Positions 1 to 6,000 of a stretch of DNA of 6,260 nucleotides are shown here, in pieces. Position numbers: made by a program. This DNA comes from a bacterium (GTDB lineage Bacteria; Oederibacteriota; PGYV01; Palsa-1178). Every line of letters begins with the position of its first letter. Position 1 is the first letter of the stretch. The DNA lies in contig JBAXIL010000052.1 in NCBI GenBank assembly GCA_037138355.1, positions 1 to 6,260 of the forward strand, written 5' to 3'.

Positions 1-3000
1 AACAGCATGTGCCTTTGGAAACATATATTTTATTTTCTTACAAGAAGTTATATACCACTCAGGAACCTTGTGTCTTCTCATAACATCTTCCCACTCTTTT
101 ATAAGTCCATTTCCTTTGCGAACACTTTCAGTAATTGCAAATGCTGTTACTTTTGAAATTTCCTTCGCTATCAAAAAGTTCATAATATCATCCCTGACAG
201 AAATAACTTCTTTTAATGTTGCGACCTTATTTTTTATTAATTCTTCTGCATTTCCATGCCATACATTTGTTCCATGCGACAGACCAGATATATATATCAA
301 ATCGCTGAAGGTTTTTGGTTTAGTGACAGCCAGCATTCCCCTGGTATTTTTTGTTCCATATTCTGGAATCCCTAAAGAACCTATTGCTGGATTATAATTT
401 TTGGGATCAACTCCCAAAACAGTCACTCCAGAAAATATTTTTAATGCCTCTTTATCATCTAAAGGTATGTCATCTACACTAATATGTAAACCTTCACATA
501 TATTTTTTATACTTGTCGGCATATCGTGTCCCAGTGCATCTATTTTAACAAGCGCATCATGTATGTAATCATATTCAAAATGAGTTGTTATTGTCTTAAA
601 ATCATTTGGTGGATTTTGTATCGGAGTAAAGTCATATATATCCATATCCTTTGGAACTAACATAAGCCCACCTGCATGTTGACTGGTAGAACGCTTAACC
701 CCAGCGCAACCCTTTGCAAGTCTTATTTTATTGGCTTCTCTTAATCGTTTTTTTGTTTTTTCCTCATATTTACTTAAAAAATCTTTCTTTATGGCATTAT
801 CCATAACTGTCAGAATCGTGCCAGCCCTATATACCTTTTCTACTCCAAATAAATCTACTAAATATTTATGTATAGTTTCCTGATATTCTCCTGCAAAATT
901 CAAATCTATATCTGGAACTTTATCTCCTTTGAAACCCATAAATGTTTCAAAAGGTATATTATAACCATCTTTTTTCAATTTATTTCCACATACAGGACAG
1001 TCTTTATCTTTCATATCTATACCTACAATATCCAAATCAAAGAACTCACTAAACTGGCAACCACCGCATATATAATGCGATTCTAATGGATTAACCTCTG
1101 AAATGCCACAAAGATAGGCAACAAGGGAGGAACCTACCGAACCTCTGGAACCTACTATATATCCATCTTGATTTGATTTCTCAACCATTTTTTTAGCAAT
1201 TAAATATAAAACCGAGTAATTATTTCCAATTATGGCTTTGAGCTCTCTATCAACTCTTTCCCTGACTATGTCCGGAAGATTTATTCCGTATATCTCTGCC
1301 GCCTTATCCCAACTTGTTTTTCTTATTTCTTCATCCGAGTTTTCAAGCGAAGGCGTGTGCAGAGTTTCAGGCACAGGCCGTATATTTGCTTCTATCATAT
1401 CTGAAATCAAGCGAGTATTAGTTACCACTACCTCTAAGGCCTTCTCTTTTCCCAAATAGGCGAATTCTTCAAGCATAGCCTCCGTGGTTTTAAAACTCAA
1501 ATCCGCAGTGGTTGTTTCTCCAATCTCATCATAGCCCTGAGCAGACATGAGAACATCTCTATATATTCTATCTGCAGGTTTCAGAAAATGTATATCCCCT
1601 GTGGCAACAACAGGAATATTATTCTCTTCTCCTATTGCACATATCTTTCTATTTATTTCATGCAAATCCTCAATAGTGCTGGCTTTGCCAATTCTTATCA
1701 AAAATTTATTGTTTTCATCTGGTTGTATTTCAAGATAATCATAAAATTGTGCAATGCTTTTTATCTCTTCATTACTCTTTTTCTCAAGCAAGGCCTGATA
1801 AAGTTCTCCCATAAAACAGGCGCTTCCAAGAACAAGTCCAGTTCTATGCTCTTTAAGTATTTCGCGTGGAATTCTTGGTTTTTTATAAAAATAATTAAGG
1901 TGTGACATAGATACAATTTTGTAAAGATTTCTCAAACCAATTTTGTTTTTAACTAAAATTATAATATGCATAGGTTTTTGTGTATCTTTTTCTTCTTCTT
2001 TATCTTCTCTGTTCATTTTAATATTTCTCTCTACCAAATACCCTTCCATTCCCATTATTAATTTAATTGCTTGCGGGCGTTTCTTATCATTAATAAAGTT
2101 ATAAGCATGAGGATACGCATGTACTACTCCATGATCAGTTATAGCCAAAGCTGTATGTCCCCACTTTACAGCTTGTTTTATATACTCTTCTACATTCGTT
2201 AAAGCATCCATTGCGCTCATTTGCGTATGCGCATGAAGCTCCACGCGCTTTACCTCTGCATTGTCAGTCACTTCAGGAGGACTTGTCACCTGAATTTTAT
2301 TTACCCTTCCTGTTATTTCTGCTTCTCCAGGAAAGTAATCAGCAGTCAAAGAGAGCTTGCCGTAAGTTAAGTTTTTTATTTCATCAAACAAACCATCTGA
2401 TTTTTCAATAAAACAACTCATTTTCATTGTTTCATTTTCATCTGTCACATAAAACAATACTATGGCAGAATCTACGCCATCTCGGCCTTTCATATCTTTA
2501 TAATAATCTTTTTCATTTATAATAAATATCCTTCCTTCCACTATATACTTTCCTGGATTAACTATATTTCCAATAGGTGTGACTTCTCCCTTTATTTCTT
2601 CATCTTTGAGCACCTTACTTTGAGTATTTCTTGATATTGTTATTTCTACACTTTTCACCACAGGAATTGGGAGTTTTTCATTTTCCACATTATCATTTTT
2701 TTCTATTAGCACTTCAGCATGTAAACCAGTAAACTCATTTATTTTCTTTCTTATTAGCATAATAGTTTTAACCCCAGACAACCTTGATATGGCTAAATCA
2801 TTACTGCATTGAAGAACAAGTCCGGTTTCTCCTATCTCAGGCACGGCATACTCTAACCATGTTCTTTCAGCATCAAACTTATCAAGAAATGCTTTCCACA
2901 TAGTTTTCACAGCTTGAGCTGCTGTTATTTCAACAGCAAAAGCCGGACTATATTTAACTTTTCTGCCGCCTGTCAAACCTGATATATAACCTGTAAATAA

Positions 3001-6000
3001 CTCCAGTGCTTGCGGTTCAAATAATCTATTAATAAACATGGTTATAGTGACAGAGTTATCAGTGTCATTTAATTCCATTGATTTAAATATGACAGAATCA
3101 GTAAGGCTGTCAGCCTTACCGTCAGAGAATGATTGCTTAATAAGTGCTTTCGTCTGCAGGTCGTCTATTACCATTTGTAAATTCAGGCCCATTATCACAC
3201 CTTTATCTTGAGGCAAATGCCATTTATTTAATTTTATTTTTCACAAAATTATACTCTTTAATTTGTTTTTAGCAAGTTGATTTAAAGCTATATAAACATA
3301 TCTGTTTGGATTGTTTTTTCTTCTTTTGCTATTTTTTTCTTCTGTATTATTTAATAATAAATCGAACAAAAGAATTACTTGTCTAATACAGCTAAAAGCC
3401 AATATATATTAAAATATTTTTTTAATAGCTTTTTTAAGTTTGTCTTTGAGCCCTTTTTGCATACTTGCATATTTAAGAATAGCCAATATATATTCAAACT
3501 TGTCGCCAGTGTCACAACGCACCCCTTCAAACTCATGTGCCAACAGGCCTTCCTTTTGCATCATAGTCCGTAAGGCATCTGTCAATTGTATTTCGCCTTT
3601 TGCTCCTGGTTTCGTCTCTCTTATATAATCAAATATCTTAGGGGAAAGCACATATCTACCTACTATTCCGAGATTAGAAAAAGCTTTTTCCACCTTTGGT
3701 TTTTCTGCCATGTCAAGTACCTGATAAATACGAGGTCGGAGTTTTTTTGGTTTTATTATTCCATAAGAACTAATTTTTTCTTTTGCAACTTTTTCTACTG
3801 CCACTACTCCACAACTTGCTTCTGTATAGATTTCAATCATTCTTTTCATGGCTGGTACTTTAGAGAAAATAAGGTCATCTGGTAAAAAAACAGCAAAAGG
3901 TTCATTACCTATAAAATCAGCCGCATGTAAAATAGCATGCCCTAAACCCATAGCTTCCTTCTGTCGTACTGAAAATATATTTACATTTTCAGGTATCCTT
4001 TTTAATTCTTCTAAGCTTGCAAAGTTTTTATTTTTATTGAGAAAATATTCCAGGTAGAAGTTTCTATCAAAATAGTCCTCAATAGAATACTTTTCTTTTG
4101 ATGTTATAAACAATATACTTTCTATTCCGGAATCTATGGCCTCTTGAACTATGAAATGAATTGCTGGAAGATCAATAATAGGTAGCATTTCCTTCGGAAT
4201 CGCCTTTGTGTATGGTAAAAACCTCGTGCCCAATCCAGCAACAGGTATTACGGCTTTTCTAACCTTCATTTTCAGTCTCCTTTTTCCCCGACGCCAGTTT
4301 TTTGTCAAGGGTTGTCATTACATGTTCTGATATCCTTGAAGCTTTTTCTTGTTTTAATGCAAATTCAGCTTCATCAATTGCTTCCTTAAACGATATATTG
4401 CGGACCAACTTTTTAGCAGAAAGTATTGACGAAGGTCCTACGGAGAGCTCATCAATACCAAGACCAATAAGTATAAAAGCTAAATGTGGTGCGCCTGCCA
4501 TTTCACCACAAACAGAAACTTTAATACCTGCCTTGTGAGCACTATCAGCAATCATTTTAATAAGTCTTAAAACAGCTGGATTTAAAGGATCGTAAAGATA
4601 CGAAACGGCTTCGTTTCCTCTATCGGCCGCTACTGTATATTGTATTAAATCATTGGTGCCAATCGAAAAGAAATCAACTTTTTTGGCAATCTCATCAGCC
4701 ATAATTGCAGCTGCTGGAACTTCAATCATTGCGCCTAAACTTATCTTCTCATCAAACTTAACTTCTTTTGTTTTTAGTTCTGCTTTAACTTCATTCACCA
4801 CTTTAACTGCCAAATCTATTTCTTCAGGATTTGTAATCATTGGGAACATCATTCTGACTTTTCCAAAAGCAGAGGCTCGTAATATAGCCCGAATTTGCGG
4901 CTTAAATATATTTATATTTGCCATAGAAAGTCTTATAGCCCGAAGTCCGAGATAGGGGTTTTGCTCTTGGACAATTTTAAAGTAAGGAAGAAACTTATCT
5001 CCACCTATGTCTAAAGTCCTTATGGTTACAGGTTTCGGATTCATTTTTTGTGCTATGCTTTTATATGCTTCAAATTGTTCTTCTTCTGATGGGAGGTTAG
5101 ATTTATTGATAAAAATAAACTCTGTTCTAAAAAGCCCAACCCCTTCTGCATTATTTTCAATTACAGCTGATATTTCTTCAGGGAACTCAATATTCGCCGT
5201 TAATCCAATCTTATGTTTGTCAGTAGTTATTGCCTCAAGTTTTTTAAAGCGATTAAGCAGTCTTAGCTTAGCTGTAAATTTTCTTTTTTCTTCTTTGTAA
5301 AAGTCAATTACTTTTTGAGTTGGCTTTACAACCACGATGCCTTGTTCCCCATCAATGATTACAAAATCTCCGGTTTTCGCAGTAGTCGTTATGTCCCTGA
5401 CTCCTACGACAGCAGGTATCTCCATAGAACGAGCCACAATAGCAGTATGAGATGTAGCACCGCCAAGTTCTGTTACGAACCCAAGAACATTATTCTTGTC
5501 CATATCAGCGGTATCTGCTGGAGATAAATCAGCTGCAATTATAATATATTTCTCAAATGATATTTTTGCTTCTTTAGTACCTGAGGATTCCAAATTACGA
5601 ATTATTTTATCTGCCAAAGAGCGTATATCACGGCTACGCTCTTTTAGATATGTATCAGAAATACGATTTGTAAACTCAGCATAGTTTTGAAGAACCATAT
5701 GCAAAGCATATTCACTTTTAATTAACTGTGTCCTTATAAGTTCTTCGGCTTTTCCCGTAAACATAGGGTCGCCCAATAATAGTAAATAAGCACTAAATAT
5801 TTCAGCTTCTGTCTTGCCCACTTCGTGCTCAATTTTTTCCTTTATTGCTGCCATTTCTGTCCTGGTTTTATCTACCGCAATTTTTAAGCGTAGTATTTCT
5901 TCTTCAATTTTTGCAGAAGGAATTGTTTCCTTACTAATTGTAAATGTCTTATTTGATATGACATGCGCCAACCCCATTACTATTCCGGGCGATGCTGCTA

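Follow-up and report, generated by a model that had tools for sequence, protein, structure and literature searches.

The window analysed here, a 6,260-nucleotide stretch of contig JBAXIL010000052.1, carries a gene for a PolC-type replicative DNA polymerase that is naturally without an exonuclease, and what is new about it is its range: PolC lacking the inserted exonuclease (Exo) prevails throughout a candidate phylum, uncultured and possessing an outer membrane, in which PolC was unreported. PolC is found in 77 of 99 species-level genomes of the phylum and the Exo domain is absent from all 33 of its PolCs that were aligned, whereas three papers, two of 2014 and one of 2024, describe PolC as restricted to Firmicutes, Fusobacteria, Tenericutes and Thermotogae; the idea that PolC reaches beyond its published hosts, put forward when the genome was surveyed, is borne out by these counts. 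It is probable, in our view, that the genome replicates with a naturally Exo-less PolC together with DnaE1, that Exo was deleted secondarily from a vertically inherited polC, and that the PHP domain proofreads. This phylum widens the range over which a two-polymerase replisome is known; for the PolC + DnaE1 pair, a survey of 2026 refers back to the 2014 finding.

The architecture itself is already known, and the understanding of PolC architecture is unchanged. Exo-less PolC has been on record since 2014, when Timinskas, Balvociute, Timinskas and Venclovas (NAR; PMC3919608), in the part of their survey that deals with it, put it at 6% of PolCs, in Clostridia and Negativicutes, with one extra Exo-less copy in Thermotogae; named examples come from Syntrophothermus, Heliorestis, Heliobacterium, Zhaonellaceae, Desulfosporosinus and Thermanaeromonas. 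The enzyme here shares with the Clostridia and Negativicutes proteins, as that part of PMC3919608 presents them, an uninterrupted PHP domain, a DnaE1 rather than DnaE3 partner and a retained PHP metal site, but it differs in its host, an LPS-bearing diderm candidate phylum, in that the Exo-less form is the rule there, and in having an N-terminal domain (NTD) too diverged for Pfam. The genome encodes LpxC and an 801-aa Omp85-type frame, its relatives carry public labels that name candidate phyla but conflict with one another, so that the name Goldbacteria is tentative, and its DnaE1 has no Firmicutes affinity; with the host read from these features, the known range of Exo-less PolC does not cover it.

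The reading frame runs on the reverse strand from TTG 3216 to position 1, where it is still open at the contig end (1072 aa), and residue numbers are given from that TTG. The survey's finding had extended the gene to 3216; the likely start is instead the ATG at 3192, which is preceded by AAAGGTG, and the database gene call (P0004, 1064 aa) is 100% identical to the frame. Against the PolC-type Pol III alpha model NF001688 the frame scores 1096.5 bits (cut-off 873) despite missing the Exo part and the C-terminal 166 aa. This match falls in two stretches, the better placing residues 404-1072 on profile positions 602-1277 of 1445 and the other (C52:1990-2643, residues about 192-409) on positions 209-419; with the older TIGR01405 model the score of 1023.6 lies slightly below the cut-off of 1043.45. 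The continuation of the gene on a second contig, suspected earlier, is found at C53:4589-5086 on the reverse strand, where the C-terminal 166 codons match profile positions 1281-1444 after a gap of about three residues and encode an HHH_6 domain and the terminal ...DQIVLF. Scanning a collection of genome contigs with the single PolC protein returned only one locus, near-identical to the window. Contamination and a pseudogene were considered and ruled out by the genome-like composition (contig GC 0.347, genome 0.349), the same-genus orthologues and the absence of internal stops from the frame. The coordinates of the features are collected in the table; the promoter match listed there is weak evidence because such sites are not above the shuffled expectation in this region.

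Features of the polC locus in the window (positions count along the window; residues are numbered from TTG 3216)
Feature	Position	Strand	Remarks
polC, first 1064 codons	1..3192	-	start ATG 3192; runs off contig end
N-terminal region, residues 9-325	2242..3192	-	divergent NTD, then OB-like region before PHP
Uninterrupted PHP domain, about residues 326-560	1537..2241	-	Pfam PHP in one piece
25-aa linker, residues 392-416	1969..2043	-	at canonical PolC exonuclease site
PolC zinc-finger cysteines C717, C720, C740, C743	988..1068	-	kept in 264-270/272 aligned PolCs
Palm motif PDIDLN, residues 768-773	898..912	-	catalytic D769 and D771, PolC-type Asn 773
Third catalytic aspartate D893	538..540	-	
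Sigma-70-like promoter match TTGCTA-16-TATAAT	3248..3275	-	upstream of polC; 10/12 matches

The order of domains is that of a PolC, with an OB-like region N-terminal to PHP and, at the C-terminus, HhH followed by the clamp motif and no C-terminal OB/CTD; with the zinc finger, the palm and the fingers also present, the PolC core is complete. A Pfam search of residues 1-325 found no family, the OB region being unrecognised by Pfam, and PHP was matched as a single piece (residues 326-496, model 1-160 of 164). No RNase_T match was obtained for the frame, so that the hallmark inserted DnaQ-like exonuclease is absent, in agreement with the original description of this protein as a PolC with its inserted Exo missing. 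Between PHP ligands E and H, where most canonical PolCs carry about 200-220 residues, there is here only the short linker. The PHP active site, left unchecked in the survey, retains all nine metal ligands (H328, H330, D337, H362, E391, H417, C467, D541 and H543), as read from alignment to the DnaE1 of T. aquaticus and M. tuberculosis (5lew) and from the motif HHDHEHCDH in the multiple alignment. An AF2 model of the domain has a pLDDT of 90.1, is of low confidence only at the linker (model block 101-110, pLDDT 59), and finds its best fold match in 3f2b_A (TMq 0.81, rmsd 2.5 A). All 272 aligned PolCs share the three catalytic aspartates. An asparagine in the palm where DnaE has aspartate is given as PolC-specific (B. 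subtilis N970, E. coli D405) in the motif descriptions of PMC3919608, which also give the PolC clamp motif as QL[SD]LF; a terminal Q..LF is near-invariant among 32 aligned Exo-less PolCs.

Comparison with solved and canonical enzymes locates the difference. Full-length PolC (9qpc, 1474 aa) aligns in two pieces, residues 253-421 to 287-453 and 412-1071 to 636-1303, which leaves about 180 of its residues without a counterpart here. Domain order, family model and 38-56% core identity are shared with the canonical B. subtilis type, which differs in having about 180-215 residues of DnaQ-like exonuclease between ligands E and H. In contrast, 3F2B, G. kaustophilus PolC from which, according to the Figure 1 legend of PMC3919608, NTD and Exo are missing, aligns in one piece over 783 residues (289-1071, E 1e-248). 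That crystal chain (3F2B, 3F2C, 3F2D) has a GSGSG stretch where the natural 25-aa linker sits in the window protein, and an N at the position of ligand D541; it is an engineered construct, whereas the protein described here is natural.

Among the orthologues, frames of 1244 aa (G095), 1223 aa (G077) and 1228 aa (G054) were found, and G075 and G012 gave DnaE-level matches only, just as first reported. DnaE1 always stands alongside PolC in the PolC-bearing genomes and occurs in 94 of the 99 overall. In the present genome its identity as a DnaE1-type alpha beside PolC, the clostridial arrangement that had been proposed, holds: the DnaE at C44:5307-8735 scores 1275 bits against the DnaE1-type model NF004226 (cut-off 1002), covers that model from one end to the other (4-1144 of 1146) and carries an intact HHDHEHCDH, whereas the Bacillus-type model NF005377 gives 933 against a cut-off of 1806. 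PolC and this full-length DnaE1 would together make up a clostridial-type replisome with a replicative role for PolC.

How the exonuclease came to be absent is a question of direction, and we infer a loss. The deletion was most likely secondary, one of many independent deletions in the history of PolC, and would predate the radiation of the genome's order, polC having since been inherited vertically. Changes between Exo-bearing and Exo-less states number 22 on 272 rows, at least 16 of them forced by starred branches, and 19 on 110 rows; there are at least ten sister pairs of opposite state with supports of 95-100, and grouping all Exo-less rows into a single clade is rejected (dlnL 1144, p-AU 2e-4), so that they are polyphyletic. 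From clade to clade the linkers vary in both length and sequence; P0066 compared with P0082 looks like a clean excision. The survey's finding had raised the bolder idea of a state preserved from before the insertion. That the order's PolC, with the Exo-less P0200 and P0154, forms a deep lineage that never received the exonuclease would imply the earliest-diverging PolC with the original uninterrupted PHP, an origin of PolC outside Firmicutes and a later insertion of Exo; it would also mean a two-polymerase replisome proofread by PHP sites only. In its favour, two of the three analyses under LG+G4 join the DnaE outgroup next to the clade of the order, with attachment supports of 21-63 in one tree and SH-aLRT values of 88 and 91 in another; a tree constrained to unite outgroup, order clade, P0200 and P0154 is as likely as the free one (dlnL -1.3, p-AU 0.57), a root elsewhere costs 69 lnL under that model (p-AU 0.064), and the E-to-H loop (16-33 aa) is similar in length to the one in DnaE1 (15-21 aa).

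Such an ancient origin is nonetheless improbable. An L-INS-i alignment with nine outgroups puts the root on Bacilli-type PolC, and PMSF LG+C20 puts it among Exo-bearing Firmicutes-type rows with the order's clade nested in the crown. A position near the root under LG+G4 that is lost under PMSF LG+C20 is the behaviour expected of long-branch attraction, although with the latter model a root elsewhere costs only 13 lnL (p-AU 0.29), no alternative root position is rejected (p-AU 0.29-0.70) and the stem between DnaE and PolC is at its upper length bound of 10. Rooting with DnaE gave three different root positions in four analyses, and part of the trees came from IQ-TREE -fast searches, so that these carry no bootstrap values and the constrained ones may be suboptimal. 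The closest neighbours of the order's PolC include the Exo-bearing P0237 and P0232, and other parts of the tree demonstrably show frequent losses of Exo. The pre-insertion state is not supported: the Exo-less form has arisen repeatedly from within Exo-bearing PolCs, and the near-root placement disappears under the site-heterogeneous model.

A recent transfer of an Exo-less polC into this genome from Clostridia or Negativicutes is hardly credible. It would suit the otherwise known distribution of PolC, in Firmicutes and a few other phyla, and named Exo-less Firmicutes PolCs exist. The nearest named Firmicutes PolCs, however, reach no more than 44-50% identity across 81-92% of the query and never group with the clade f1-f10, which is monophyletic with a support of 100 over the nine families sampled (f7 unsampled). 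Within f1-f10, PolC has diverged to the same degree as the DnaE1 beside it (47-63% against 53-71%), the GC content of the locus tracks that of the host from 0.26 to 0.71, and the flanking genes (galU, ptsI, HPr and an mgtE-like gene) include no mobile element, so that recent acquisition from Clostridia in particular is unlikely. The PolCs of the phylum do fall into three clades that resist being forced together (dlnL 719, p-AU 2e-5), from which it follows that some ancient transfer or differential loss has occurred. Labels available for four of 20 representatives of the tree neighbours read Hydrogenedentota, Erysipelotrichaceae, Lactococcus and Tissierellia; the Hydrogenedentota-labelled PolC, encoded on a 16-kb contig, is an orphan, since a search that started from it gave no relative with more than 44% identity.

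The likeliest proofreader would be the metal-dependent 3'-5' exonuclease site of PolC's own PHP domain, because the nine ligands are intact in 33 of 33 aligned PolCs of the phylum, HHDHEH[C/H]DH being the criterion for an active PHP exonuclease (PMC12926913). Of 79 further Exo-less rows, many of which belong to this phylum too, 78 keep the motif whole. It is not specific evidence that PHP has taken over, since it is the majority state in canonical, Exo-bearing PolCs as well (121 of 156 rows). A precedent is the DnaE1 of M. tuberculosis (PMC5636811), a DnaE1 and not a PolC, which shows the activity with the same nine-residue metal site; by analogy the PolC site would proofread too. Proofreading in trans by the stand-alone exonuclease on C74, the other suggestion made for this genome, is not supported. 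That protein contains the sole RNase_T domain of the genome, yet it is a DnaQ-like exonuclease about 30% identical to PolC Exo domains, with readable DEDDh-like motifs and a BRCT-like tail that matches the BRCT region of LigA, and its best model, NF004844, gives a score of 228, short of the cut-off at 373. Within the phylum, a stand-alone exonuclease that strongly resembles PolC Exo is a feature of the PolC-less families and not of the PolC-bearing ones. The phylum supplies numerous natural examples of a PolC whose sole built-in proofreader would be PHP, and the repeated clean loss of Exo suggests that PolC can do without this domain as long as its PHP is intact.

A different reason for the loss would be that PolC is an accessory enzyme and DnaE1 replicates the bulk of the genome, which would make losing Exo cheap. 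The full-length DnaE1 with its intact PHP motif and full C-terminal region would suit this, and PolC is absent altogether from 19 genomes in six families of the phylum that have DnaE1 only, one of them a single-contig genome; on an evolutionary time scale, then, PolC can be dispensed with, and the main replicase might be DnaE1. The division of labour is posed as a question for all PolC + DnaE1 systems in the discussion of them in PMC3919608, where, as of 2014, none is described as characterised experimentally. Yet more than three-quarters of the genomes keep a PolC, its catalytic residues invariant and a clamp motif at its end, and we regard an accessory role as rather unlikely. Gene-strand bias, a published correlate of PolC, was considered as support for PolC as the replicase and set aside, as PolC-less relatives (0.79-0.96, 5 blocks) and PolC-bearing ones (0.53-0.93, 4 blocks) were not separated by it in nine blocks from seven genomes; in the genome studied here, 90% of 1126 ORF-genes lie on the majority strand (32 contigs of at least 20 kb).

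The polC frame scores 1096.5 bits against the PolC equivalog model NF001688, for which the cut-off is 873, and the match falls into two stretches that skip profile positions ~420–600. Pfam recognizes a PHP domain in a single piece (residues 326–496) together with the Pol III alpha and finger domains, and gives no RNase_T match within the frame. Alignment with the full-length solved PolC 9qpc also yields two pieces, leaving 9qpc residues 454–635 without a counterpart, while 3F2B, identified in excerpts of PMC3919608 as G. kaustophilus PolC without its N-terminal domain and exonuclease, aligns in a single piece over 783 residues, with the natural linker of the window's protein lying against the GSGSG stretch of the 3F2B chain. 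These alignments bear out the survey's finding of a PolC whose PHP domain lacks the DnaQ-like exonuclease (Exo) inserted there in canonical PolC. The continuation it had proposed on a second contig also holds, as C53:4589–5086 corresponds to NF001688 positions 1281–1444 and contains the HhH domain and the terminal residues DQIVLF, with ~3 residues lost between the C52 and C53 ends. All 272 PolCs that we aligned share the palm aspartates D769, D771 and D893 without exception; the window's protein also has all four zinc-finger cysteines, and its palm motif reads PDIDLN, the asparagine of which is a PolC-specific feature according to the same excerpts. The window's protein is a real, intact and selected Exo-less PolC.

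The source genome comprises 1.66 Mb in 91 contigs, with completeness estimated at 94% and contamination at 0.5%; the window forms one end of C52, and its four genes are all co-directional on the minus strand (see table). The start of polC is likely the ATG at 3192, with AAAGGTG ahead of it, and a database gene call of 1064 aa is consistent with this. Downstream of polC, C53 carries an mgtE-like gene and not the rimP-nusA-infB set known from Firmicutes. The reading frames of ptsI and galU share 50 bases (4259–4308).

Coordinates of the window's genes and of the stand-alone exonucleases
Feature	Location	Strand	Remark
HPr fragment	6260..6015	-	window gene
ptsI	6031..4259	-	window gene
galU	4308..3409	-	window gene
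AT-rich spacer, 192 bases	between galU and polC frame		
polC frame, 1072 codons	3216..1	-	truncated by contig end
C74 exonuclease, 318 aa	G000 (source genome):C74:241-1197	+	locus L005; sole RNase_T domain in genome
PolC-Exo-like stand-alone exonuclease, examples	G006-G010 (family f12), G011-G015 (family f13)		e.g. L044:460-1272

The PHP active-site residues, which the survey had left unchecked, proved to be intact: the nine metal ligands H328, H330, D337, H362, E391, H417, C467, D541 and H543 spell HHDHEHCDH, the criterion for an active PHP site (PMC12926913). An AlphaFold model of residues 300–625, built from a 32-row alignment, reached a mean pLDDT of 90.1 and a pTM of 0.89, with low confidence in the linker only, and the structure that it matches best is 3f2b_A (E 4e-30, TMq 0.81, rmsd 2.5 Å). 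Proofreading of this Exo-less PolC by its own PHP domain is, by inference, among the best-supported readings.

A search of the 99 genomes available for the phylum, in 23 families (f1–f23), found PolC above cut-off in 77. Among the matches listed, the N-terminal match extends to profile positions 407–414 and the C-terminal one begins at 596–613, in one frame of ~1205–1362 aa. We aligned the window protein with 32 fetched genes (12 loci and 20 hand-picked regions, at least one per family), and all 33 have a linker of 16–33 aa and the complete set of PHP ligands. Matches at DnaE level only were obtained in 19 genomes of six families (f11–f15, f23), one of them a single-contig genome; in the remaining three, PolC is in pieces (G082) or was not detected (G084, 93% complete; G045, 66% complete).

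That Firmicutes already possess Exo-less PolC, a caveat of the survey, is correct. Excerpts of PMC3919608 state that the insertion is absent in 6% of PolCs, that these all belong to Clostridia and Negativicutes except for one extra copy in Thermotogae, and that all are paired with DnaE1; named Exo-less PolCs in the database come from Syntrophothermus, Heliorestis, Heliobacterium, Zhaonellaceae, Desulfosporosinus and Thermanaeromonas. Excerpts of three sources (PMC3919608, PMC4070872, PMC11040001) limit PolC as such to Firmicutes, Fusobacteria, Tenericutes and Thermotogae, and no paper among the matches listed, supplementary tables aside, paired it with Goldbacteria, Margulisbacteria, Hydrogenedentes, Firestonebacteria or 'candidate phyla'. 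The architecture is thus known, and what is new is its broad host range in this phylum. PolC does occur outside its known phyla, as the survey held, given the 77 genomes and the labels on relatives (including Goldiibacteriota, Aerophobetes and Riflemargulisbacteria), none of which denotes a Firmicutes group; LpxC and an 801-aa Omp85-type frame mark the source genome as that of an LPS diderm, as the survey had described the host. A 51%-identical relative carries both Candidatus Goldiibacteriota and Candidatus Aerophobetes as NCBI labels, and a public contig (L021) with 1 mismatch in 1695 bases to window positions 2836–4530 is labelled Candidatus Riflemargulisbacteria, as opposed to the survey's Goldbacteria.

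How the Exo-less state arose was addressed with trees whose columns exclude the insert and the N-terminal region. Besides the window protein and the 32 fetched genes, the 272 rows comprise 239 of 268 database proteins, the 29 shorter than 1100 aa having been dropped. The FastTree topology (734 columns) requires 22 switches between Exo and no Exo, of which well-supported branches force at least 16, and a smaller tree made by IQ-TREE -fast (LG+G4, 712 columns) from 110 hand-picked rows with four DnaE1 outgroups requires 19, with ten sister pairs of Exo-bearing and Exo-less rows at SH-aLRT 95–100. Forcing all Exo-less rows into a single clade costs 1144 lnL (p-AU 2e-4), and doing so for the 25 phylum rows costs 719 lnL (p-AU 2e-5). 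Linkers of separate Exo-less clades are unlike in length and sequence, and in one pair of database proteins (P0066/P0082) the flanks align as a clean excision. The phylum PolCs form three stable clades that track families, namely (i) f1–f10 (the window's order, support 100), (ii) f16, f17, f20, f21 and f22, and (iii) f18 and f19; the backbone between them shifts from one analysis to another. Secondary loss of the Exo domain is, by inference from these trees, among the best-supported readings.

The survey had suggested that Goldbacteria might preserve, or have re-created, PolC as it was before the insertion. Under LG+G4 the DnaE outgroup does join beside the window's clade and its neighbours in two analyses, although in a third it joins a Bacilli-type PolC; a topology that sets the Exo-less group next to the outgroup fits as well as the free tree, and rooting elsewhere costs 69 lnL (p-AU 0.064). 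Under the site-heterogeneous PMSF LG+C20 model (37 hand-picked rows), however, the root shifts into Exo-bearing rows and the window's clade is nested with Halanaerobiales- and Thermotogae-type PolCs, with all three hypotheses within 13 lnL (p-AU 0.29–0.70) and the DnaE–PolC stem at its upper length bound. The constrained searches were all run with -fast, and the trees carry no bootstrap values. This pattern suggests that the root near the window's clade reflects long-branch attraction under the simpler model, and an ancestral state is therefore unsupported but retains a small probability. Recent transfer from Clostridia, which the survey had allowed for, is also unlikely: those named Firmicutes PolCs that come closest are 44–50% identical over 81–92% of the query, the internal divergence of the f1–f10 clade is on a par with that of the accompanying DnaE1, PolC loci range in GC from 0.26 to 0.71 following their hosts, and the polC contig agrees with its genome in composition. 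The DnaE1, too, shows no Firmicutes affinity; beyond its own lineage it shares 41–44% identity with Omnitrophica, Atribacterota, Deltaproteobacteria and Bacillota sequences alike.

This DnaE1, on contig C44, is the second alpha subunit the survey had recognized; it is full-length, matches NF004226 end to end (1275 bits, cut-off 1002), falls far under the cut-off of the Bacillus DnaE3-type model and retains an intact PHP motif. The genome also has dnaX. DnaE1 was found at E ≤1e-100 in 94 of the 99 genomes, the five without a match being 83–94% complete. In the three-contig genome G095, DnaE1 lies in two abutting frames (C2:798363-801762) that meet at profile position 515; a frameshift, recoding or a sequencing error may account for this. 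Genomes of f16 and f17 have a second, shorter DnaE-like gene of ~1015–1050 aa (G023:C3:959455-962556 and G033:C1:874672-877224 among others), which reaches 620–760 bits with the DnaE1 model and in some copies contains in-frame stops. In G043 the PHP motif of DnaE1 (locus L050) reads HHEKEHCDH, two ligand positions being altered, while the PolC of this genome retains HHDHEHCDH.

Proofreading in trans was the survey's other proposal. The C74 protein has an N-terminal exonuclease part with readable DEDDh-like motifs, ~30% identical to PolC Exo domains, and a BRCT-like tail that matches LigA 542–635; its best family model, PRK06195, scores 228, below the cut-off of 373. ORFs of similar size gave weak matches in f1, f2, f4 and f10. 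A stand-alone exonuclease of 190–275 aa, 37–47% identical to canonical PolC Exo, is present in PolC-less f12 (5/5 genomes) and f13 (5/6), and as a query it returned nothing or weak matches, and no close homologue, in PolC-bearing genomes. The distributions of this protein and PolC look complementary, and since with this query it is confined to PolC-less families, trans-proofreading by such a protein is unsupported in PolC-bearing lineages.

Gene-strand bias has a published association with PolC. Across the 32 source-genome contigs that reach 20 kb (C1, C9 and C16 among them), the majority strand of each contig carries 90% of 1126 ORF-called genes in total, with a matching GC skew of 0.10–0.22. 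In a small comparison of nine blocks from seven genomes, PolC-less relatives are as biased and two PolC-bearing relatives are not, so that strand bias does not track PolC in this phylum, against that association.
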